The position numbers were made by a program, and so were the translations under genes. From NCBI GenBank assembly GCA_910585045.1, contig CAJUCD010000003.1:42779-106778 (forward strand): a stretch of DNA of 64,000 bases. Direction: 5' to 3'. The stretch comes from an uncultured Bacilli bacterium (GTDB lineage Bacteria > Bacillota_I > Bacilli_A > RF39 > UBA660). Under the pieces are notes generated by a model, which was not told the DNA's origin, searched no databases, and worked only from the letters and a program-made list of their open reading frames with translations. Of this stretch, positions 18,466 to 64,000 are shown piece by piece; positions within the stretch are counted from its first letter, which is position 1; every line of letters starts with the position of its first letter.

Positions 18466-18541
18466 GCTGAAATAGCTCAGTCGGTAGAGCAACGCACTCG
18501 TAATGCGTAGGTCGCAAGTTCGATTCTTGTTTTCAGCACCA
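18466..18541 (+). tRNA. tRNA-Thr (anticodon CGU)
   Basis: Cloverleaf readable: acceptor GCTGAAA/TTTCAGC, D-arm AGCTCAGTCGGTAGAGC, anticodon stem ACGCA/TGCGT with loop CTCGTAA, T-arm GGTCGCAAGTTCGATTC, 3' ACCA. Confidence 0.9.
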
Positions 18542-18577
18542 GATTTAAGGATAACTCAAACATTTGAGCAATGATAG

Positions 18578-18604
18578 AAAGCGACTTGTCAAAAAGTCGC
18601 TTTT
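18578..18604 (+). terminator. rho-independent terminator after tRNA-Thr (AAAGCGACTT-gtcaaa-AAGTCGCTTT + T)
   Basis: 10-bp perfect stem followed by TTTT. Confidence 0.5.
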
Positions 18605-19291
18605 ATGCTATGATGAATATGTCAAGGGAACTTGCATAAAATAAAAAAGGGAAATATTCAGTTCGCAAAGTTGAATGTCTACCCCAATTTAATGTGTAGA
18701 GACACTTATTCTAGCGAATGAGTGTCACTTTTTTATTACGATAATCATTATGATTAGGAGTAATAAAATGATAGAAAGATGTCTAAGAACCTTTATAACA
18801 AAAATTCTCTTCTTCATTTTTATCAAACCTCCTCTCTTAGTGAGATTTGGTAGACACTCAACAACTGATATTTCCTGTATAAATTATACTAGACAATTAA
18901 GTCTATTACAATAAATTTAACTATATTTTGTTAATTTAATGAATACAATTGTATATTGTCAAAAACAAATATAGTATAACGAAGATTTTATATGAGGTTT
19001 AAAATTAAAAATAGAACTTATTATAATAGTTTGAGATAAATCATTTCAAAGAAATTTTATTTAGATATTATTATTGTGTTGACTTTGGATGTGATTATTT
19101 TTTGTTTATGCTAATTTTTTTAATAAGTATAATAATGTAAAAATACTAATTATAAAAGTTTAGCAATTATAATGGCTAATATCTTTAAAATTGATATAAT
19201 ATAGATATATTAAGATTATGTAGAAATAGAATGTCTGCATGTAATTAATATTTTTTAATTAAATAGATAATATAAGGTTTGGAGGAAAAAT

Positions 19292-55323: not shown

Positions 55324-55924
55324 TAGAGATTTGGTAAAAGGGAATTTTAATGATTATGAAGATATTTCTTTAACTAATGTAATGTTTTTTAAAGAAGAGG
55401 TTGCTAATAAAACAGTGAAGTTTGAAACATTTAGAGAAGTATGTTTTAAAAACTGTAAATTTAGTAAGGTTTCATTTGATAATAATTTTATGGGAAAAGT
55501 GCAATTTCTTAATTGTGAATTTATTGGTGTTAGTTTTGTAGAATCTAATTTAAGTAAAGTAATGTTTAGTAATTGTAAATTTACAGATGTTAGTTTTTTT
55601 GAATCTACGTTAAGCGATATAGAAATAATAGAATCTTTAATGCAATATTCTAAGATTGAGAATTCTACGTTAAAAGATGCTAAGTTAGATGATGTAAGAT
55701 TAAATGAGAATATTCATAGACATAATAAATATCATAATGTTATTTTTTATAAATGCGAACTTGTAGCTGAAAATTTTATTGATACTAAATTTGGTGATTG
55801 TGATTTAAAAACTAGTTCATTTAAAGGAGTAAATATTAATTTGGATGATTTAATAACTTCAAAATTATCTATGTTAAATATTATTGAAATTTTAAGTGAT
55901 AAGGGTATATTAATTGAAGACTAA
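55307..55924 (+). CDS. pentapeptide-repeat protein
   Basis: Repeated A(D/N)LxxA-type pentapeptides: NCKFSKVSFDNNFMGKVQFLNCEFIGVSFVESNLSKVMFSNCKFTDVSF.... Confidence 0.7.
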   Translation: MKWEFSRDLVKGNFNDYEDISLTNVMFFKEEVANKTVKFETFREVCFKNCKFSKVSFDNNFMGKVQFLNCEFIGVSFVESNLSKVMFSNCKFTDVSFFESTLSDIEIIESLMQYSKIENSTLKDAKLDDVRLNENIHRHNKYHNVIFYKCELVAENFIDTKFGDCDLKTSSFKGVNINLDDLITSKLSMLNIIEILSDKGILIED

Positions 55925-55977
55925 TTAAAAAAATATTTTAAGATGTTAAAAAATGTGTTATAATATTTTTGTTAGTT

Positions 55978-56063
55978 GCTTGTGTGGCGGAATGGTAGAC
56001 GCACCAGACTCAAAATCTGGCGAGGTCAAACTCGTGTGGGTTCAAGTCCCACCACAAGCACCA
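55978..56063 (+). tRNA. tRNA-Leu (anticodon CAA), class II with a long variable arm
   Basis: GCTTGTGTGGCGGAATGGTAGACGCACCAGACTCAAAATCTGGCGAGGTCAAACTCGTGTGGGTTCAAGTCCCACCACAAGCACCA. Anticodon loop CTCAAAA, T-loop GGTTCAAGTCC, 3' CCA. Confidence 0.9.
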
Positions 56064-56147
56064 GATTGATATGAAATGGCTTCGAAAAGTTAGAAAAAGA
56101 ATGTATAATAAAAATATATTCTTAAACTTGGAAGGAGTCATTTTTTA

Positions 56148-57235
56148 ATGAAAAAAACGATAGAAGAAAAACTTGAAATGTGTAAAGAACATGTAGTAGA
56201 GGGAAAGTCATTATCACACATATGTGAATTACACAATACAAGAAACATAGATGATTTAAAATATCTAGTTAATTTATATAAAAGATATGGAGAAGAACCA
56301 TTTTTAAACAGAGAAAGAATGATATATAGAAGAGCAACAAAACTATTAACTATAAGCAGAATAAAAAATGGAGACAAGTAAGTTTGGATATCGGATTAAT
56401 AAATTATAAAACGGCATTAGATTGGGTAAAAAAGTATGATACAGAAGGAGAACAATCAATACAAGATACTTATCCTAGAAAAAACTATTTAAATGAAGAT
56501 GAACGATATAAAAAGATGATAGATAAGAAATTAATGGAAGAAAATGAAAGATTAAAAGCAGAGATTGATTTCTTAAAAAAATCGCAGTCCTTAGCAAAAA
56601 AACTAGAATAACTAACAACAAAAGAAAAAGTAAAAGTTGTCAATGAGCTAAGGATAAAGTATGAATTAAAAGTTCTTCTAGAAATGGCAGATATTCCATT
56701 GTCAGTATATTATTATCAGTTAAATGCAATAAAAAATAAAGTCAACTATAGAAGATATAATTCTTATAAAGGTGATTTAGGAGGAGTAAAGGAAAATGTT
56801 TTAAATCAAGATTTCAAGGCAACAAAACCTTATGAAAAAGCAGGAACAGATGCAAAATTAGAAAAAGTATTAAACATGATAAAGAAATTAAAAGAAAATC
56901 ATCAGGAAAATATAAAAGGTATGATAATACAATCAGATCAAGGTGTACAATACCAAAACTCTAGATATTCAGAATTGTTAAATGAATATGAAATAATCCA
57001 ATCAATGAACAGAAAAGGAAATTGTTTAGATAACTCTCCGACAGAAAATTTTTTTGGAAGACTAAAAGAAGAAATATGGTATAATAAAGAATATAAATAT
57101 GAAAACTCTGTGGAATTAATAAAAGAAATTCATAATTATATAAAATATTATAATGAAATACGGATAGTGACTAAATTAAAAACAACTCCAATTGATTTTA
57201 GGAAAAAATGCTTAAGTGAACTGGGAGTTGCATAA
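56148..57235 (+). mobile_element. decayed IS3-family (IS150-like) insertion sequence: OrfA split into two pieces and a truncated OrfB (rve) C-terminal part; non-functional
   Basis: OrfA-like ...YLVNLYKRYGEEPF plus a leucine-zipper piece ...LMEENERLKAEIDFLKK. OrfB piece ...IIQSDQGVQYQNSRYSELL...QSMNRKGNCLDNSPTENFFGRLKEE matches the integrase-core C-terminus. No intact DDE region. Confidence 0.7.
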
Positions 57236-57362
57236 ATTTTTTTCTAACTTTTTGAAGTCGTTTCAAAAATGGATTTTATTTAAAAATGAAACGGAAATTA
57301 TTCAAAAGTTATTTCACCTATGATATAATTAATTCAGATACAATGAAGGGGGAATTTATCAT

Positions 57363-58255
57363 ATGAAAAATAATTTAATCAAAACAGAAATAGATGTTAT
57401 TAATAATAAAATAAGTGTAATGAGAATAGACGGCATAGATTATATATCTCTTACAGATTTAGCAAAATATACAAATCCTGAAGATCCATCTGGAGTAATT
57501 AGAAATTGGATGTCTAATAAAAATTCTTTTGAATATTATAGTCTTTGGGAAGAGATTAATAATAGAGATTTTAATTCCGTGGAATCTCACAGAATTAAAA
57601 TTAATGAAGTTGGGTATAATCGATTTACTATGACACCAAATCGTTGGAAAAGAGATTTTAATGCAATCGGTATAATACCAAGCAGTGGTAATATAGTCAA
57701 GGAACTTTTGCCCACCCAGATATAGCATTCGAATTCGCTAGTTGGTTAAGCCCAGAGTTCAAATTGTATTTAATAAAAGAATTCGAAAGATTAAAGAAAA
57801 ATGAGGCTTATCAGGAAAAAATAGAATGGCGTGCTAATAGGTTATTATCTAAAGCAAATTATATAGTTCATACTGATGCTGTTAAAAATTATATTGTTCC
57901 AACATTAACAGAACAGCAAAAGAAGTTTATATATGCAGAAGAAGCTGATGTGTTAAATGTAGCTTTATTTGGAATGACAGCTAAAGAGTGGAGGAAAAAG
58001 AATCCAAAACTTGCTGAAGATGGTAATATAAGAGATTATACAGATTTATTACATTTAATAATATTAAACAATTTAGAGAATTCTAATGCTGAATTTATAA
58101 AATTGGGGATTGTTCAAAGAGAGAGGCTAATAAAATTAAATGAATCTGCTCGAAATCAAATGGAAATCTTAAAAAACAATAACGGAATAAAAGAATTAGA
58201 AATGTTACAAAATCAAATAAATAATAGTGGGTATTTAATCGATAATAAAAATTGA
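57363..58255 (+). pseudogene. KilA-N domain protein (phage antirepressor-type) disrupted by a frameshift near 57700
   Basis: Frame 1 gives the KilA-N N-terminal part (...ISVMRIDGIDYISLTDLAKY...NWMSNKNSFEYYSLWEEINNRDFNS...) and stops at 57725. The conserved continuation GTFAHPDIAFEFASWLSPEFKLYLIKEFERLK is in a different frame from about 57703 and runs into the 57764..58255 ORF. Confidence 0.6.
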
Positions 58256-58689
58256 TTTTACTATAATAAATTGAAATAAAAGTTACTAGTGGAAATGAAA
58301 CGGAAATTATTCGGAAGTTGAAATTTTGATATAGAATTTTGAAAATAAAGAATTAAAGGAAAATCAATAATCAATTATAAACACAAATATTATAACACCT
58401 TATAAAACCTAAAGACTTACGTTAATAATTTAAAAATTAGCAAGAAATTATCCAAACTTAAATCGGAAGTTATTCAAAAATTTCTAAAATGAGAAAATAT
58501 GATATGGCTATTTAGAGTGACTTTTGATATAATGAAAATGCCAATGGGGAGAGTTCAAATAAGAGCCTTATAACACACCAGATTGATAGTAAACTCGAAC
58601 TTTTATGTTTCGAGTTTTAATATGCTTTAAATTATTGTATAATGTATTTGTAGTAATCAAACTAATTTATTTATTGGGAAGTTTAATTA

Positions 58690-58796
58690 ACAAAAAAATA
58701 TTTAAATTAGAAATTAATGAAAATGATAACAAAATAAAAGTAATAAGAATAGGATCTAAGGAATATATATCTGTAACTGATTTAGTACAGTTTTAA
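58690..58796 (+). pseudogene. second short KilA-N N-terminal fragment (KIFKLEINENDNKIKVIRIGSKEYISVTDL)
   Basis: Resembles LIKTEIDVINNKISVMRIDGIDYISLTDL of the upstream KilA-N gene; truncated after about 35 aa. Confidence 0.3.
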
Positions 58797-59352
58797 AACA
58801 TTTACTAATTTTATTTAGAAAACACTAATGTTGAACTTATTAACGATTGAAATACAAAGGTAAAAAATTACGCCAAAAAAACTATATTTTTTTAATATAG
58901 CTTTATAATTAACGTAATCATTTTTTAAAATGGTTAACTATTTTAGAGATTAGTTAAAGTAAATAAAACATGGAATATTATATTTATTCTTTCTCTATAT
59001 ATACTTAAGTTTGTTACTTCTTCAATAAAGTCTTTATATTAATCGTTTTTAATATTCCTATGGTTAGACATATTACGATTATTATTACTATTATTAGTAT
59101 TTTCTTCTTTTGCATCATTACTATTTTCCCTTTATTTTATACTCGATAATAAATTTAATTCAATTTTATCATAATATTAGAGTATTGATAATTTTTTTTA
59201 TTAAAAATAAAAAATTGAAAAAATATTATTTATAAAATAAGATTAAATAAAAGAATATTTTATTGTTATAAATGCTGAATGTTAATAATCATTGCTTGTA
59301 GCAACGAGCTACTTTGCATATAATAGGCAGTAAAGAAAGGAGTTGTTCTAAA

Positions 59353-59862
59353 ATGCTTAAAGAAAACATTAAAACAATAAGGAAATCAAGAGGTCTTTCT
59401 CAAGAGGAGCTTGCTATTAAAGTAAATGTAGTAAGACAAACTATTTCTAAGTGGGAGCAAGGATTATCTGTTCCTGATTCAGAAATGTTAATTAGAATAT
59501 CAGAAGTTCTTGAAATACCAGTAAGTACTTTGCTGGGAGAGAATATTTCTGAATTTAAAAAAGATGATTTAAAAGTAATTTCTGATAAATTAGAGATTAT
59601 AAATTTACAACTTTTACAAAGAAAACTTGCAAGAAGAAAAATAATTCATTTGACATTAATTTTTATATGTATAAGTGTAATAGTGATTGGCTGTTGTTTA
59701 TTTTTGTTACATAGTTCTTATTTAAATTGGAATTATGATGATCCTGAAAAGAGTGTTTTGGGAGTGTTTTTTCATTCGTTTGAATGGCTATTTGTAAGAA
59801 TAGCACCTATAATTGTTATCATATCATTAGTGGGAATAATGTTGACTCGAAATAAAGATTAG
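59353..59862 (+). CDS. membrane-anchored XRE-family HTH regulator (N-terminal HTH_3 plus two C-terminal TM helices)
   Basis: IRKSRGLSQEELAIKVNVVRQTISKWEQG, then LTLIFICISVIVIGCCLFLL and APIIVIISLVGIML. RBS AAAGGAG; ATG at 59353. Confidence 0.6.
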   Translation: MLKENIKTIRKSRGLSQEELAIKVNVVRQTISKWEQGLSVPDSEMLIRISEVLEIPVSTLLGENISEFKKDDLKVISDKLEIINLQLLQRKLARRKIIHLTLIFICISVIVIGCCLFLLHSSYLNWNYDDPEKSVLGVFFHSFEWLFVRIAPIIVIISLVGIMLTRNKD

Positions 59863-59934
59863 TTTTAAAAATGTTATTTATGTTTTATAATTTGTGCTAT
59901 AATATAAAGGAATTTTTTAGGAGATTATTTTAAT

Positions 59935-61137
59935 ATGATTAAGAATTTATCATTAAATGATTGTACTCAAGAAAATATAATAGAGCACCTTAAAAATACT
60001 GAAAAATTATTGAAAACAGTTGCAACTAAGTTATCAAAAGAGGAAAAAGATGCCAAAATATATGTAATGCCTGATTTAGGAATTGCTCAAAATGCAACAA
60101 GAATGTTAGGAGGATTTTATACAGGAGCTTGTTATACGTGGGATACAGATGTTCCGTTTATTCCAGTTGATGCTACAGTAAATGTTTGTGGAACGGCAAT
60201 TTATAAATTAAATAAAAGTATTAGTAATGAAGAATTTATTAATAGACTTAATAATATATTAAATGATAGAAAATCTTATTTAGACTTTGCTAATAAGCAT
60301 TTACCATTAGAAGTTTTAAAAACTATTGATATTAATGATGCTTCAAAATATTATTGGAATTATACTAATGGTAATCATTTTATTATTTTTGCTGAGTCTG
60401 ATGGAGAATATGGACTGGAAAAAGGTCAGTATATGATTGTTCATGCTTCTGCGATAGAATTTAAAAAAGATAATTTGGAATTTGGATTATATCCTGTAAA
60501 AGGAAATTGGTATTATGATGATATAAAAACAGAATATGATGAAGATTCTAAAAGATATTTACGATATATAACAGGTGAAAAAGCTAAAAGATTTTATGAT
60601 ATAGCTACCTATTTAAAAGATTTTAATAAAATTAGAAATAGTTATTTTTGTAAGGCTGTTTTAGGTGATTTATTACAAAAAGAAGTTATTAATATAAGCC
60701 ATTATGGAATGCCAACAAATAATTCTATATGTATTGGCTCTCAGTGGGAACAACTTGATTATGCATTATTGACAGCACCTGGAAATGCTATTTATTTGGT
60801 ACATCCTAAATTAAATTTAAACAATACTTTTGCACTAGATAATATAAATATTACTTTGACTCCTCATGGTTGTGGTGTAAAAATGAATAATAGTGCAGAT
60901 AAAATAGAATATCTCGATAAAAACACATTAAAAGTTGGTAATAATATTTTTAGTTTAGGTAATAGTGTAAATATTGGCATAGATGTTTCAGTAAGAACAA
61001 ATGGTATGAATGAAGAAGAATTAGATACATACATATTAAATATTCTAAAGCAATGTCCTGGAACTGTTTATGGTAAATTAAAGCAACGCTATGCTAAAAC
61101 AAAATCTGGAGATTTTGAATTTATTAAAGAAAATTAA
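59935..61137 (+). CDS. hypothetical protein (400 aa), function unknown
   Basis: ORF with RBS TAGGAG; no motif recognised. Confidence 0.45.
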   Translation: MIKNLSLNDCTQENIIEHLKNTEKLLKTVATKLSKEEKDAKIYVMPDLGIAQNATRMLGGFYTGACYTWDTDVPFIPVDATVNVCGTAIYKLNKSISNEEFINRLNNILNDRKSYLDFANKHLPLEVLKTIDINDASKYYWNYTNGNHFIIFAESDGEYGLEKGQYMIVHASAIEFKKDNLEFGLYPVKGNWYYDDIKTEYDEDSKRYLRYITGEKAKRFYDIATYLKDFNKIRNSYFCKAVLGDLLQKEVINISHYGMPTNNSICIGSQWEQLDYALLTAPGNAIYLVHPKLNLNNTFALDNINITLTPHGCGVKMNNSADKIEYLDKNTLKVGNNIFSLGNSVNIGIDVSVRTNGMNEEELDTYILNILKQCPGTVYGKLKQRYAKTKSGDFEFIKEN

Positions 61138-61231
61138 ATTGTTAGAAACTCGAATTTTATGTTTCGAGTTTTAATATGGATTAATTTATGTTATAATTTT
61201 TTTGATTATATAGTATTGGATGTGATTATTA

Positions 61232-61576
61232 ATGTATTTTAAAATTGCACAATCTTTTTCTGAGACTCCTGGTGGTCGTTATAAAAAAGAAGGACCTTAT
61301 TCAGCTGAAGAATTTAGAGATAATTTTTTAGTACCTTTATATTTAAAGTGCTTAGCGCTATCAGAAAAATTAATGTTAGATTTTGATGGTGGTTATGGTT
61401 ATGCTCCTGGTTTTTTAGAGGAAACTTTTGGGGGAATGATTAGACTTGGTTATTCTGCAACAGAAATGGCTACAGTTATAGAGTTTGTTTCAAATGAAGA
61501 ACCTAATTTAATATCTAATATTGCAAGTTATATTAGTGATGCTGAATGGGTTTTAAATGATAGGAATTTAAATTAA
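61232..61576 (+). CDS. small STAS-like (DUF4325-type) protein
   Basis: ...PGGRYKKEGPYSAEEFRDNFL...KLMLDFDGGYGYAPGFLEETFGGMI resembles the DUF4325 STAS-like pattern (LDFEGV...sSFldE). By recollection only. Confidence 0.4.
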   Translation: MYFKIAQSFSETPGGRYKKEGPYSAEEFRDNFLVPLYLKCLALSEKLMLDFDGGYGYAPGFLEETFGGMIRLGYSATEMATVIEFVSNEEPNLISNIASYISDAEWVLNDRNLN

Positions 61577-61586
61577 GAGGTGTGTT

Positions 61587-63269
61587 ATGGGGTATTCATT
61601 AAAAGTTAGAAACATTGTAAAAGATGTTAAAGTTAAAGGGAAAACTAAAAGGTTATTAGATAATGTATCTTTTGATATTAGTGAGCATGAATTTGTAGCA
61701 TTAGTTGGTGTATCAGGGGCTGGTAAAACAACACTTTTGAATGTTTTAAGTGGTTATGATTCATATTCTAATGGCGAGGTTTATATTAATGATTTAGCAA
61801 TTTCATCTAATATGGACTATTATATGAATAAAATGAGTTATGTACCGCAAAGAGAAGTGTTGCATAATCATTTAACTTTAGAAAGAGCTTTGTATTATAG
61901 TGCTAGTCTTAGAATTGCTAATGCTAGTAGCGAAGAAATAAAGAGAAAAGTAAAAAAAGTAATTAGAGAATTAGACTTGCAAGGAAAAGAAAATACTTTT
62001 ATAAAAAATTTGAGTGGAGGAGAGAGAAAAAGAGCTTCTATAGCTACAGAACTTTTAACTAAGCCAGATATTATGTTTTTAGATGAGCCTACTAGTGGTC
62101 TTGATTCTAATATTGAGAAGAAATTGATGATTACTTTAAGAGAGTTAGCTAATCAAGGTAAAACGGTTGTGATAACAGCACATACTTTAGCTAATTTATA
62201 TTTGTGCGATAAAATAATATTTATGAGTGAAGGGGGAAAAATTTGTTTCATTGGTACTTATGAAGAAAGTTTAAAATATTTTCAAGTTAAAGAGTTTGTT
62301 GATATTTATGAAAAGCTAAAAGATCCTTCTCAAATAGAAAAGTATCAAAAAAAATATAATGAAAAAGAATTGTTAAATATAGAAAAAAGAAGAAAAATTA
62401 ATCATAAGAAGCAAAAAAAAATATCTAGATTAAAAGAAATTTATTTTTTGACAAAAAGATACTCGGAAATAATAATGAATAATAAAGTATTTTGTTTTTT
62501 GCTCTTTTTTCAAGCAATAATTATGGGATTTGCCATTATCATTGTAGCTAAAGATGATTGGTTGAAAGTTTATGATACTGCTAAAATTTTATTGTTTGCA
62601 TTTTCATGTGCAGCAATGTGGCTGGGACTTTTTAATTCTGTTCAAGAAATTGTAAAGGAAAAAGATATTATTAAATTGGAATATTTTAATAATATGCGAT
62701 TGTCTTCTTATGTTGTTTCAAAATTGTTGGTATTTGCATTTTTATCTTTAGTACAAGCTTTGTTGTTTTTAGGTATAATTAGTTTAAAAGTTGGAATGCC
62801 AGTTTCAGGAATAATATTTTCATCAGCTTTTGTAGAATATATTTTTTGTTTCTTTTTAGTCTCTTTTTCTTCTTCAATGCTTGGTATGTTAATATCAGCA
62901 GTAGTTAAAACAACAGAAATCACTCTTATAATTACGCCTATATATATGATGTTTCAATTATTATTTTCAGGAATATTAGTATCTTTACATGGTATCGGCG
63001 ATACTATTTCTCATTTTATAATTGGAAGATATGCGATAGAATCGTTTGGTATTACAACTAACTTGATAGAAGTGCTTAAAAATACTAGTTTGGGTGGAAT
63101 TATTGATCCTATAACAACAACGGGAATGTTTATTGATGAGGCGGAACAATACTACTTGTATACACTTAGTCATATGAATCAAATTATTTTAATATTAGTA
63201 TTTACAATTTGTTTATTTATGGTTCTATCTATTTTGGCAATTAAGTATAATATAAAAAAATCATATTAG
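61587..63269 (+). CDS. ABC transporter with fused ATP-binding domain and ABC-2-type permease
   Basis: Walker A GVSGAGKTTLLNVLSG, signature LSGGERKRASIA, Walker B IMFLDEPTSGLD, followed by six TM helices. Confidence 0.85.
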   Translation: MGYSLKVRNIVKDVKVKGKTKRLLDNVSFDISEHEFVALVGVSGAGKTTLLNVLSGYDSYSNGEVYINDLAISSNMDYYMNKMSYVPQREVLHNHLTLERALYYSASLRIANASSEEIKRKVKKVIRELDLQGKENTFIKNLSGGERKRASIATELLTKPDIMFLDEPTSGLDSNIEKKLMITLRELANQGKTVVITAHTLANLYLCDKIIFMSEGGKICFIGTYEESLKYFQVKEFVDIYEKLKDPSQIEKYQKKYNEKELLNIEKRRKINHKKQKKISRLKEIYFLTKRYSEIIMNNKVFCFLLFFQAIIMGFAIIIVAKDDWLKVYDTAKILLFAFSCAAMWLGLFNSVQEIVKEKDIIKLEYFNNMRLSSYVVSKLLVFAFLSLVQALLFLGIISLKVGMPVSGIIFSSAFVEYIFCFFLVSFSSSMLGMLISAVVKTTEITLIITPIYMMFQLLFSGILVSLHGIGDTISHFIIGRYAIESFGITTNLIEVLKNTSLGGIIDPITTTGMFIDEAEQYYLYTLSHMNQIILILVFTICLFMVLSILAIKYNIKKSY

Positions 63270-63310
63270 AAATTTAATATGAAATTTAATTAGATGATTG
63301 TGGTGATTAA

Positions 63311-63901
63311 ATGATATTTGCTTCTATATTATTATTTTTATTATTTGTTTTATGGTCTTTTAATATGGTTAAAGGGAACTTAGAACATTTAGATAATAAA
63401 GTTTACAGTTATTTACATATAAATAAAGTGTATACGAAGATATTTAAAATTATAACTATTTTAGGAAGTACAAAGTTTTTTGTGCTGCTTTCTTTTTTGT
63501 TGTTAATATTTATGAAGAATAAGATATTGGCAAGTGTAATAGTAGTCTTATTAATTATAAGTAGTGGACTAATAGAAGGATTTAAACGGATGTTTAAAAG
63601 AGAAAGACCTAATATAAAAAGATTAGTTAAAGAAAAAGGTTATAGTTTCCCATCGGGACATACTACTAGTTCCACTTCTTTTTTTGGTTTTCTTATTTTT
63701 TTAGTTAGTATTAGTTATTTAATTATTAGTGTTAAAATTATTTTAATTATGCTTATTTTGGTAATAATTCTTTTGATTGGTCTTAGTAGAATATATTTAG
63801 GAGTGCATTATTTTAGTGATGTAATAGGGGCTTATTTGCTAGCTTCTAGCTATGTACTTTTGTATGTCTACTTTGTGCATGCTCTTTTAAAATTTGTTTG
63901 A
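63311..63901 (+). CDS. PAP2-family phosphatase (undecaprenyl-diphosphatase/PgpB-like)
   Basis: KRMFKRERP (KxxxxxxRP), PSGHT, SRIYLGVHYFSD (SRx5Hx3D). Confidence 0.8.
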   Translation: MIFASILLFLLFVLWSFNMVKGNLEHLDNKVYSYLHINKVYTKIFKIITILGSTKFFVLLSFLLLIFMKNKILASVIVVLLIISSGLIEGFKRMFKRERPNIKRLVKEKGYSFPSGHTTSSTSFFGFLIFLVSISYLIISVKIILIMLILVIILLIGLSRIYLGVHYFSDVIGAYLLASSYVLLYVYFVHALLKFV

Positions 63902-64000
63902 TGTTTAAAATAGTAGTGTTATAATTATAGTATTAAGTAGGTGAAATAGTTTGATTAAAAAAAAGAATAAGGAAAATAAAGGAAAGATTGTACCTTTTTT

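Follow-up and report, generated by a model that had tools for sequence, protein, structure and literature searches.

The window, by which we mean the whole 64-kb stretch of DNA that was analysed, contains a variable region anchored at the CCA end of a tRNA-Leu(CAA) gene. Within this region lie two copies of a short hairpin-bearing element, here called the junction module. Between the two hairpins are the stub of a KilA-N gene, an AT-rich gap, a gene for an XRE-family protein, and a gene for a 400-aa protein; a DUF4325 gene and an ABC transporter gene follow. The features are listed below, with (+) for the forward strand and the basis of each assignment in brackets.

55978..56063 (+): tRNA-Leu(CAA) (ARAGORN; Rfam tRNA model, 63 bits)
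56059..56071 (+): repeat CACCAGATTGATA, made up of the final 5 nt of tRNA-Leu and the initial 8 nt of the module spacer
56072..57265 (+): IS3-family insertion sequence (27-nt terminal inverted repeats, 89% complementary; rve/rve_2)
57363..58255 (+): first copy of the KilA-N gene (Pfam KilA-N)
58546..58580 (+): diverged tRNA-3'-end-like relic ending in CACCA (sequence, weak similarity)
58580..58665 (+): module copy 1 (nhmmer E 1.1e-15; fold)
58591-58599 and 58609-58617 (+): stem arms of copy 1, then the T-tract TTTTAATATG
58638-58643 (+): TATAAT of copy 1
58680..58796 (+): KilA-N N-terminal stub, cargo of module copy 1 (ORF translation)
58797..59352 (no strand): AT-rich non-coding gap, about 18-20% G+C (composition)
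59298-59312 (no strand): palindrome GTAGCAACGAGCTAC, inside the AT-rich gap and upstream of the XRE gene
59353..59862 (+): XRE-family HTH protein (HTH_3 E 2.4e-14)
59935..61137 (+): RtcB (RNA-ligase) fold protein of 400 aa, from a divergent family without a Pfam model
61139..61204 (+): module copy 2, 5'-truncated, without CACCA (nhmmer E 3.4e-9; fold; alignment)
61146-61154 and 61163-61171 (+): stem arms of copy 2, then the T-tract
61189-61197 (+): extended -10 box of copy 2, TGTTATAAT
61232..61576 (+): DUF4325 (STAS-like) gene, 31 nt past the nhmmer match of copy 2 (Pfam)
61587..63269 (+): fused ABC ATPase/ABC-2 permease (Pfam)

Many of these parts had been named in the original prediction and are confirmed here. 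The 13-nt repeat is real: it stands at the tRNA-Leu end (56059-56071) and again at 58576-58588. The KilA-N stub after copy 1 is borne out by its ORF translation and by comparison with locus L025 of another genome, to which copy 1 and the KilA-N 5' end are 82% identical at the nucleotide level over 208 nt. The XRE protein carries an HTH_3 domain and two C-terminal hydrophobic, transmembrane-like segments (Kyte-Doolittle peaks at 101-119 and 146-164). Downstream, Pfam recovers both predicted neighbors, a DUF4325 protein and a protein with ABC_tran and ABC2_membrane domains.

The neighboring unit at 56072-58575 is flanked by CACCAGATTGATA, that is, by direct repeats that include the tRNA 3' end. 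Here the IS3 element is inserted directly 3' of GATTGATA. In this strain the transposase frames are disrupted, and a strain contig, L001, has an intact 455-aa gene call; likewise, the first KilA-N gene is frameshifted here and intact, at 297 aa, in other strains (L049, L050). The relic at 58546..58580 sits where a relic of the form AGTTGTWG...GCACCA stands at inner junctions elsewhere. A search for the canonical AGTTGTWG...CACCA motif gave no match in the window or in L005, and the flank of copy 1 was classed as 'other' in our census. The AT-rich gap has no homology to any fetched locus.

At the right end, the ABC gene is the first gene of a conserved chromosomal backbone (ABC-PAP2-LytR...). 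Its synteny, ABC-PAP2-LytR-Metallophos-Rce1-Flg_new, is kept in the related species of L109, where the ABC protein is 70% identical. Upstream of the ABC ortholog, the related species of L109 and L106 have no DUF4325 gene; in the window, this gene is probably the final piece of cargo ahead of the backbone.

Two copies of a conserved junction module

Both hairpins lie where they had been placed, AAACTCGAACTTTTATGTTTCGAGTTTTAATATG at 58591-58624 and AAACTCGAATTTTATGTTTCGAGTTTTAATATG at 61146-61178, and differ by one indel. The 64-kb window contains the 24-mer common to both at exactly these two places, and none of 100 dinucleotide-preserving shuffles contains it. Each copy forms a stem of 9-10 bp, with a folding energy of -9.8 kcal/mol for copy 1 and -12.0 kcal/mol for copy 2 (z-scores against shuffles of -2.3 and -3.6). 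The repeat itself thus stands, but its original length of 33 nt was too short: it extends over about 65 nt (~58584-58650 versus 61139-61204) at 84% identity and comprises an 11-nt spacer, the 9-10-bp stem-loop, TTTTAATATG, and a -10-like box.

We show that a conserved junction module underlies the repeat, each hairpin belonging to one copy of its proximal part. This proximal part consists of the spacer GATTGATAnnA (11 nt), a variable loop enclosed by the stem AACTCGAA(C)/(G)TTCGAGTT, TTTTAATATG, and an extended -10 box of the type TGnTATAAT; in its full form of about 165 nt, the module continues with a palindrome and a second hairpin. Copy 1 finds its best match in L025 (91% identity), where the module heads a KilA-N gene. 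Copy 2 abuts the stop codon of the 400-aa gene, with its hairpin beginning 8 nt past that codon, and its nhmmer match covers profile positions 10-70 only. It lacks the start of the spacer and the CACCA/tRNA-like relic, which precedes nearly every other copy in the census.

Across copies, the cells of the stem are paired in 91.7% of cases; sliding the partners lowers this value to 57% or less. At two stem positions both bases of the pair have changed: at one, G:C is replaced by A:U and by U:A, and at the closing pair C:G is replaced by A:U. G:U wobbles are found in four stem cells. Covariation is thin; 4 of the 10 pairs are invariant. The loop varies in length from 3 to 19 nt, on which ground a Xer/dif-like or lox-like core site was rejected for the hairpin. 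The stem sequence AACTCGAA/TTCGAGTT is far more conserved than the loop; what is conserved may be the sequence of the stem and not its structure alone, which would also fit a protein-binding site. A second hairpin sequence family, GTTCGAAC-TA-TTCGAAC, occupies the same position. Rfam searches of the window region and 18 loci returned tRNA and tmRNA only, and no known RNA family covers the module.

Distribution of the module in other genomes

The exact 24/25-mer was found in 32 stretches from about 28 species-representative genomes (MAGs), with at most 3 copies per genome. A scan anchored on another part of the module gave 52 metagenome stretches, about half of them with the hairpin part, and profile searches gave 77 matches. 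These represent 62-65 distinct copies, a count that varies with the span compared and draws on the roughly 28 reference MAGs and on metagenome contigs. The hosts form a clade of low-GC gut bacteria, with MAG labels of Bacilli, Tenericutes, Mycoplasma, or Clostridium.

The position of the module is nearly constant: almost all hairpins start 11 nt past the CCA of a tRNA gene, a tmRNA gene, or a relic resembling a tRNA 3' end. Genes for tRNA or tmRNA called by ARAGORN precede at least 31 copies and a GCACCA relic precedes at least 17; in all, a tRNA, tmRNA, or CCA relic stands before at least 48 distinct copies. Nine tRNA specificities are found before the module (Phe, Leu, Arg, Lys, Ile, Ala, Thr, Val, and Met). 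At inner junctions the relic has the pattern AGTTGTWG-N~20-GCACCA, and the junction of CACCA with GATTGATA recurs at dozens of other loci. One locus (L043) has a partial tRNA-Leu that is unmistakable, with a variant of the hairpin behind it; at another (L109), junction relics are present and no tRNA gene lies within 14.5 kb of them. The cargo is highly diverse and made of small genes, including those for NUDIX proteins, peptidases, a WYL protein, KilA-N, DUF4325, and others.

Could the module be a REP- or MITE-like intergenic repeat, or a generic tRNA 3' trailer, with no role in cassettes? In favor of this, the repeat is short, palindromic, and intergenic and recurs in many genomes, and there are truncated and degenerate forms. 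Yet its copy number is low (two copies and one degenerate form in the 64-kb window, and no more than three exact copies per reference genome), nearly every copy sits behind a tRNA or tmRNA CCA end or a CCA-ending relic, some tRNA genes have no module, and homology blocks that contain cargo begin at the module. We give this explanation almost no credence. The possibility raised at the outset, of a REP-like element unrelated to cassette boundaries, does not describe a repeat that is low-copy, tRNA-linked, and boundary-associated. In the window, tRNA-Thr (18466-18541) is followed by a module variant and tRNA-Cys by an unrelated, ordinary terminator; the idea of a universal tRNA trailer was rejected on the evidence of the latter.

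A proposed terminator followed by a promoter

The hairpins had been proposed to be either terminators or recombination sites, and each proposal is right in part: the module reads as a terminator followed by a promoter-like element, and in other genomes it stands at the exact left edge of mobile cassettes. The stem-loop and its U-tract would act as an intrinsic terminator or insulator that blocks read-through from the tRNA gene or the upstream cassette, and the -10 box about 20 nt downstream of the hairpin would restart transcription for the cargo. In the window, copy 2 would terminate the RtcB-like gene and promote the DUF4325 gene together with the backbone ABC operon.

A stable stem-loop does lie directly 3' of a gene on the same strand, be it the RtcB-like stop codon or a tRNA-like CCA end. 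The resemblance to Rho-independent terminators extends to the order of parts, a stem-loop and then a T-run just 3' of a tRNA gene, a tmRNA gene, or the RtcB-like ORF. Unlike such terminators, the module has an A+T-rich stem with only 3 G:C pairs (the host genome has about 25% G+C) and a short U-tract of 4 U followed by AAUAU (tail UUUUAAUAU), and a consensus terminator scan of 55900-64000 called neither copy. Unlike ordinary terminators, moreover, it has kept its sequence at non-homologous loci and in different species. If the reading is correct, a compact terminator-promoter unit that shields cargo from strong tRNA transcription is a testable design principle.

A divergent RtcB-fold family

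The 400-aa ORF had been noted as a protein of unknown function, and it has no Pfam match at E up to 0.01. Searches of PDB sequences, whether with the single sequence (phmmer) or with a profile, gave no match, and hhalign against E. coli RtcB gave a probability of 0.4, that is, no sequence-level match. Fold comparison alone identified the protein, as having the fold of RtcB. By inspection, the protein and E. coli RtcB share six collinear motifs: MPD, xCG, GNHF, H(S/A)xS, H, and HGxG. Also by inspection, and as candidates for the metal-binding Cys/His residues and the nucleophilic histidine of RtcB (H337 in E. coli), the motif residues C85, H148, H170, H256, and H311 line up with E. coli C78, H168, H185, H281, and H337. 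The family alignment shows no variation at the motif positions checked, which include C85, H148, H256, and H311 and leave aside H170, the histidine of the fourth motif. Archaeal and human RtcB are somewhat longer than the protein, in which the RtcB motif HGAGR reads HGCGV. Truncation of its C-terminus by module copy 2 was considered and rejected: the conserved domain is complete and only the variable tail differs.

The family has hundreds of members and occurs on mobile elements and in island contexts elsewhere, usually with a His_Phos_1 histidine phosphatase and a metallo-beta-lactamase-fold enzyme, and not with RtcA or archease. Both usual neighbors are missing in the window. Judged from fold and gene neighborhood, the family is a candidate RNA-repair or counter-defence module.

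The segment between the hairpins as a probable composite

The original prediction took 58591-61178 to be one cassette bracketed by its own two sites. The evidence does not support this view, on four grounds. First, copy 1 stands, like the module in L025, at the head of a KilA-N gene, here truncated. Second, copy 2 has no CACCA/tRNA-like relic and abuts the stop codon of the 400-aa gene. Third, the two copies, at 84% identity, are no more alike than each is to copies in other genomes. Fourth, the arrangement is identical in every same-species contig examined.

The strain contigs were collected by exact-protein look-ups of the RtcB-like and DUF4325 proteins. They differ from one another only by frameshifts in the IS3 and KilA-N genes; neither the 2.6-kb unit at another site nor an empty site was seen, and so no mobility was seen within the window's own species. 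Nor is the unit flanked by direct repeats of a tRNA 3' end, copy 2 having no CACCA.

The same observations bear on a related explanation, in which one integrated 2.6-kb element carries the XRE and RtcB-like genes and has the hairpins as its attL and attR sites, or else as a target duplication. It accounts for same-orientation direct repeats that bracket an accessory-type gene pair, one of which belongs to a family found in mobile and island contexts. Yet the copies, at 84% identity, resemble each other no more than they resemble those in other genomes, copy 2 is missing the CACCA core and spacer start that are near-universal elsewhere, and the same-species contigs examined show no presence/absence polymorphism. 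The stub after copy 1 is homologous to the cargo in L025, which indicates that copy 1 heads a different, truncated cassette. Furthermore, the gene upstream of the RtcB-like gene in four other contexts is never an XRE gene, and a module is present in just one of the four (L044, about 1.1 kb upstream). An attL/attR pair is thus very improbable.

The region 56064-61586 downstream of tRNA-Leu is a decayed cassette array. Its first unit, 56064-58575, comprises a module start cut by the IS3 element and the frameshifted KilA-N gene, flanked by the 13-nt repeat. Next stands copy 1 with its KilA-N stub, which a rearrangement has fused to the XRE gene and the RtcB-like gene; the 5'-truncated copy 2 comes after these. 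Such a patchwork of decayed units makes the 2.6 kb between the hairpins a composite. On balance, we think it fairly probable that the hairpins belong to a conserved terminator-promoter junction module of tRNA-linked cassettes and that the DNA between them is not a moving unit.

Cassette mobility elsewhere

In other genomes, cassettes that are 99-100% identical stand behind unrelated upstream DNA, with homology beginning at the CCA. Three loci (L070, L073, and L087) are 98.7-99.6% identical from -17/-20 onward in three different upstream contexts; L027 is 100% identical to L072/L101 over 1204 nt; and L018 and L027 share 95% identity from -17 to the cargo stop codon. Conversely, L020 and L032 have syntenic flanks in common and different cargo. 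Diverged secondary copies of the module lie 0.7-1 kb downstream in L020, L024, and L031, and arrays of single-gene units with such junctions between them also occur. Identical cassettes behind unrelated DNA, with homology from the CCA, argue that the module marks the boundary of a mobile cassette. On the right, the identity between L027 and L101 extends about 77 nt past the following CACCA, and this pair therefore does not fit a simple CCA-to-CCA unit.

Tandem site-specific accretion may have placed the cassettes at tRNA CCA ends, or they may be swapped by recombination between the conserved junctions; in either case the recombinase would act in trans. A tblastn search found no tyrosine integrase or recombinase in the 64-kb window. 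Among 148 ORFs near modules elsewhere there were 2 Phage_integrase matches, 2 large serine recombinases, and 3 Mob_Pre proteins, a census of mixed recombinases beside a minority of modules with no dominant family. No module-bearing contig had terminal overlaps and no circular junction contig was found, as might have revealed excised circles. The viral contigs scanned for the hairpin gave 0 matches and no lead to a phage attP.

The hairpin itself could be the recombination substrate, either as a single-strand site like attC or the ends of IS200/IS605 or as the inverted-repeat core of a tyrosine/Xer double-strand site, with termination incidental. The conservation of the AACTCGAA/TTCGAGTT stem far beyond the loop fits such a role, as do the constant adjacency of hairpin and cassette boundary, the absence of a recombinase from the cassettes (as in integrons), and the presence in the spacer of TTGAT, the target pentanucleotide of ISDra2. 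However, the homology boundary is at the CCA, 11-20 nt upstream of the stem and outside the hairpin. Loops of 3-19 nt are unfit for a fixed overlap region, G:U wobble cells suit RNA better than DNA, and a second hairpin family (GTTCGAAC-TA-TTCGAAC) in the same position points to a positional or structural role and not to a specific binding site. No Y1 transposase family or IntI surfaced; among the 148 ORFs sampled near modules elsewhere, the two generic Phage_integrase matches were the sole tyrosine recombinases, and the window has none. We consider a hairpin substrate improbable, and retain the hairpin as part of a terminator-promoter module.

A broader proposal is that the whole junction (tRNA-like arm and CCA, spacer, hairpin, and promoter) is the recombination site of an undescribed integron-like cassette-capture system in low-GC gut Bacilli, in which tRNA and tmRNA CCA ends serve for docking, a trans-acting recombinase inserts tiny, integrase-less cassettes with their own promoters behind many different tRNA genes and shuffles them, and the hairpins in the window are relics. 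This is possible but doubtful. A true cassette-exchange system would account for the exchange of single accessory genes at tRNA loci, with no integrase in each element, among small-genome, low-GC gut bacteria, which are known mostly from metagenomes; the genes swapped would include those for NUDIX hydrolases, peptidases, WYL regulators, and enzymes resembling RNA-repair proteins. Such a system would also provide an annotation landmark for variable regions in these genomes: a CCA end, 11 nt, and the AACTCGAA hairpin.

Comparison with known systems

Islands built at tRNA or tmRNA genes by tandem site-specific accretion have been described in several bacteria: cis-mobilizable elements (CIMEs) beside ICEs and IMEs (PMC5704250), the tycheposons of Prochlorococcus (bioRxiv 10.1101/2020.12.28.424599), and the ssrA islands of Dehalococcoides (PMC3146451). 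Like these islands, the variable DNA linked to the module starts at tRNA or tmRNA 3' ends, has partial or relic tRNA 3' ends between successive units, and consists of accessory, diverse cargo in which older units are decayed and without integrases. Four features set the module units apart. They are very small, about 0.7-2.6 kb and often with a single gene; a conserved terminator-promoter module, one and the same throughout, stands at their head; this module occurs behind at least nine tRNA specificities and tmRNA, with its boundary exactly at the CCA; and no cognate integrase was found in the window or among the ORFs near modules.

Integron arrays consist of small, mostly single-gene cassettes without recombinases, separated by attC repeats that contain an imperfect palindrome (for example, the Vibrio VCR). 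The module units share this organization: they too are small, mostly single-gene, and without a recombinase of their own, and have palindrome-containing repeats between them. No IntI gene was seen in the 64-kb window or among the 148 ORFs near modules elsewhere, nor was an attI/Pc platform seen. Unlike integron cassettes, the module units have their own promoter, carried by the module at the 5' side of the cargo; and unlike attC, the module leaves the cassette boundary outside the hairpin, anchored at the CCA end of a tRNA.

Hairpin pair in the tRNA-Leu region

Two near-identical hairpins bracket a 2.6-kb segment that the original prediction treated as one cassette. The observation was correct: AAACTCGAACTTTTATGTTTCGAGTTTTAATATG lies at 58591-58624, a version without the C lies at 61146-61178, and the gene content named for the region is confirmed as KilA-N, XRE (HTH_3), a 400-aa ORF without a Pfam family, DUF4325, and a fused ABC gene. 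The scale, though, was misjudged: both hairpins are local remnants of a tRNA-linked junction module found clade-wide. The window contains a 24-mer common to both hairpins at just these two places, and 100 dinucleotide-preserving shuffles never produced it. Each copy has a stem of 9-10 bp (folds of -9.8 and -12.0 kcal/mol; z-scores -2.3 and -3.6). Similarity extends beyond the 33 nt, such that ~58584-58650 and 61139-61204 are 84% identical, a -10-like box included.

Features of the tRNA-Leu region, in window coordinates
55978-56063: tRNA-Leu(CAA)
56059-56071 and again 58576-58588: 13-nt repeat CACCAGATTGATA, the last 5 bases of tRNA-Leu plus the next 8; second copy immediately 5' of hairpin 1
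56072-57265: IS3-family element, abutting the first GATTGATA and bounded by 27-nt inverted repeats
3' of the IS3 element: first KilA-N gene, frameshifted in the window strain, intact (297 aa) in other strains
58591-58624: hairpin 1
First item after hairpin 1: KilA-N stub, 35 codons
Between the stub and the XRE gene: AT-rich gap, ~18-20% G+C
After the gap, before the 400-aa gene: XRE gene (HTH_3), with two strongly hydrophobic C-terminal segments
59935..61137: gene of the 400-aa protein
61146-61178: hairpin 2, 8 nt past the stop codon of the 400-aa gene
After hairpin 2: DUF4325 gene
10 nt after DUF4325: fused ABC ATPase/ABC-2 permease gene
Also in the region: PAP2, supported by Pfam

The comparisons do not support the segment 58591-61178 as a single cassette. 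Copy 1 and the KilA-N stub match, at 82% over 208 nt, a locus with the order tRNA-Leu, module, KilA-N (L025); copy 1 therefore heads a truncated KilA-N cassette. Copy 2 joins the module profile only at position 10, begins at the 400-aa gene's stop codon, and lacks CACCA or any relic (a tRNA-3'-end-like remnant ending in CACCA). The copies resemble each other less (the 84% above) than copy 1 resembles L025 (91%), and their median identities to foreign copies are 81% (copy 1) and 78% (copy 2); they are thus not a fresh duplication. All same-species contigs examined share the identical arrangement. Related species keep the backbone ABC-PAP2-LytR-...-Flg_new, but their DNA 5' of the ABC gene differs and lacks DUF4325, so the variable region runs from the CCA end of tRNA-Leu to DUF4325. 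From these comparisons, the 2.6-kb segment appears to be a composite inside a decayed array, into which a rearrangement would have fused the XRE gene and the 400-aa gene.

The region holds further repeats. On either side of the first KilA-N gene lies a 35-nt repeat (core AAATGAAACGGAAATTATTCAAAAGTT), present in three direct copies that are 74-77% identical, at 57276-57310, 58285-58319, and 58448-58482. A perfect palindrome, GTAGC-AACGA-GCTAC, at 59298-59312 sits between -35-like and -10-like boxes 5' of the XRE gene and is likely its auto-operator. Frameshift patterns in the IS3 element and the first KilA-N gene differ among strain assemblies (L001-L005, L045-L053): the transposase is a 455-aa call in one strain, KilA-N is intact at 297 aa in two, and two strain contigs end at the IS3 element. 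These differences could be true strain variation or assembly homopolymer errors.

Structure and distribution of the module

When one genome per species was scanned for the exact pattern, the 24/25-mer turned up in 32 stretches from ~28 genomes, with at most 3 exact copies per genome. The carriers are all MAGs, labelled Bacilli, Tenericutes, Mycoplasma, or Clostridium, together with some Muribaculaceae contigs that are probably mis-binned. Alignment gives a full module of ~165 nt, composed of a spacer, GATTGATAnnA (or GATTTAAGGAT); the stem-loop; TTTTAATATG; an extended -10 box (TGATAtAAT); a palindrome, AAATTGA-n5-GTCAATTT; and a second hairpin. The window copies comprise only its first 60-85 nt. 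A second scan used the downstream palindrome as its anchor and thus carried no bias toward the hairpin; of the 52 metagenome stretches that it gave, about half have the hairpin part. A profile search gave 77 matches, 62-65 of them distinct according to the span compared.

The distal half of the module (GTCAATTTAGTAAACACACTTGTACATTGACAtaATCAATGAACGTGTG) lies ~60-150 nt past the hairpin in L012-L042 and L054-L104, and is absent from the window copies. It forms the second hairpin, with apparent compensatory changes such as ATTGA/TCAAT to AATGA/TCATT, and also occurs without the tRNA module, 3' of an ORF and terminator, in ~12 metagenome contigs. Rfam returned no match for this half, which may be a 5'-leader RNA or an operator.

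Upstream contexts and cargo

A tRNA or tmRNA gene called by ARAGORN lies a few bases at most 5' of at least 31 distinct module copies; the tRNA specificities are Phe, Leu, Arg, Lys, Ile, Ala, Thr, Val, and Met. At least 17 distinct copies follow a conserved relic, AGTTGTWG-N~20-GCACCA, and the remaining flanks are mostly tRNA genes truncated at a contig end or variant relics. In nearly all copies the module starts directly after CCA. One locus, L043, has a clear partial tRNA-Leu followed, at an equal 11-nt distance, by a second hairpin type, GTTCGAAC-TA-TTCGAAC, which is also found at the closing end of several cassettes. The first ORF 3' of the module is highly varied (NUDIX, peptidase C26, beta-lactamase, ADP-ribosylglycohydrolase, WYL, KilA-N, DUF4325), and many first cargo ORFs have no Pfam family.

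The module is not a universal tRNA trailer: tRNA-Cys in the window carries an unrelated terminator. The window tRNA-Thr (18466-18541) is followed by a module variant (18542-18580) made of the spacer GATTTAAGGAT and a shortened hairpin, AACTCAAAC..TTTGAG. Some 300 nt beyond this variant (18720-18970), a 30-codon hydrophobic ORF on the minus strand (MKKRIFVIKVLRHLSIILLLLIIMIIVIKK) is oriented divergently to a distal palindrome/hairpin part, matched by nhmmer at E 0.005. Loci L015, L058, L062, L074, L076, L102, and L109 share this arrangement, which looks like a type I toxin-antitoxin locus. In a related species (L109, 1780-3020), a small hydrophobic ORF and two junction relics, made of GCACCA and a hairpin variant, precede a T-box-like leader and aminoacyl-tRNA synthetase gene; an ARAGORN search of this 14.5-kb locus found no tRNA gene, so such relics can survive at a distance from any tRNA gene.

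Function of the hairpin

Across 28 aligned sequences, 91.7% of the cells in the stem are paired, compared with no more than 57% when partners are slid; 4 cells are G:U wobbles. Two positions show double changes (at one, G:C becomes A:U and U:A; at the closing pair, C:G becomes A:U), 4 of the 10 pairs are invariant, and the loop ranges from 3 to 19 nt.

The original prediction offered shared terminators or recombination sites. UUUU directly follows the stem-loop, the hairpin is always co-directional with the upstream gene, the 11-nt distance from the CCA end is fixed in two different hairpin sequence families, and a -10 box lies ~20 nt downstream, at 58638-58643 in copy 1 and 61192-61197 in copy 2. 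With these features, the module most likely works as a terminator-promoter unit, in which the stem-loop would act as terminator or insulator and the -10 box as restart promoter. Such a unit would be sensible for cargo sited behind tRNA genes with their high transcription. Support for this role is indirect: the hairpin has an A+T-rich stem and was not called by a consensus terminator scan. The hairpin may instead be a protein-binding or single-strand recombination site, but the homology boundary falls at CCA, outside the loop, which disfavours such a role.

The RtcB-fold protein and its neighbours

Several hundred uncharacterised proteins make up the family of the 400-aa protein. Searches at the sequence level (Pfam, PDB sequences, hhalign against E. 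coli RtcB) gave no match. Its AlphaFold model (pLDDT 85, pTM 0.86) matches RtcB RNA ligases by predicted fold: all 6 Foldseek matches at E < 0.001 are RtcB. Six collinear motifs link it to E. coli RtcB; one of them, HGCG at 311, lies opposite HGAGR at 337, the E. coli motif with the guanylylated histidine.

Homologues of 60-71% identity have an adjacent His_Phos_1 phosphatase and, in 3 of 4 contexts, a metallo-beta-lactamase-fold protein; some of these sets lie within integrase/Mob_Pre elements, and one (L044) lies ~1 kb downstream of a junction module. The window gene stands alone with the XRE protein, a pairing not seen in the other contexts with an examinable upstream gene. Across loci L006-L010, L043, L044, and L112, the RtcB-fold gene is usually beside His_Phos_1 and mostly also a metallo-beta-lactamase-fold protein; in L006-L010 these genes are part of mobilizable elements with integrase and Mob_Pre, beside defence-type genes (ThsB_TIR, KAP NTPase). 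The trio is a candidate mobile RNA-repair or counter-defence set.

Proposed cassette mobility and comparison with known systems

Shared blocks in other genomes begin at CACCA. Three module-bearing loci (L070, L073, L087) are 98.7-99.6% identical from position -17/-20 (CACCA) onward, and upstream of this block lie a tRNA-Leu gene and two different relics. A cassette behind tRNA-Thr (L027) is 100% identical to cassettes behind a relic (L072/L101) over 1204 nt beginning at CACCA, and 95% identical to L018 from -17 to the cargo stop codon. L020 and L032 carry unrelated cargo between homologous flanks (tRNA-Leu plus module; tRNA cluster plus integrase). Second, diverged junctions lie 0.7-1 kb downstream in L020, L024, and L031, bracketing single genes. 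Judged from these alignments, the module marks cassette boundaries.

The 1.2-kb identical block of L027 and L101 runs ~77 nt past its right-hand CACCA (hairpin +1107 to +1184 in L027) and stops where an inverted repeat, CCCCGCAGGTA...TACCTAGGGG, has its foot; at least one cassette thus has a right boundary other than the CCA relic.

The 64-kb window holds no tyrosine integrase, and among 148 module-neighbouring ORFs surveyed with Pfam, hits of this kind were few and scattered (Phage_integrase 2, large serine recombinases 2, Mob_Pre 3, Rep 2). A viral-sequence search for the hairpin gave no matches, and none of the module-bearing contigs checked is circular.

At the family level, the cassettes appear to be a form of tRNA-island accretion that also has features like those of integrons. 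CIMEs (PMC5704250) and tycheposons (bioRxiv 10.1101/2020.12.28.424599) are described cases of tandem accretion at tRNA genes, their decayed units lacking an integrase. Module-headed cassettes show the same pattern; unlike either system, their units are tiny and have one conserved head in common.
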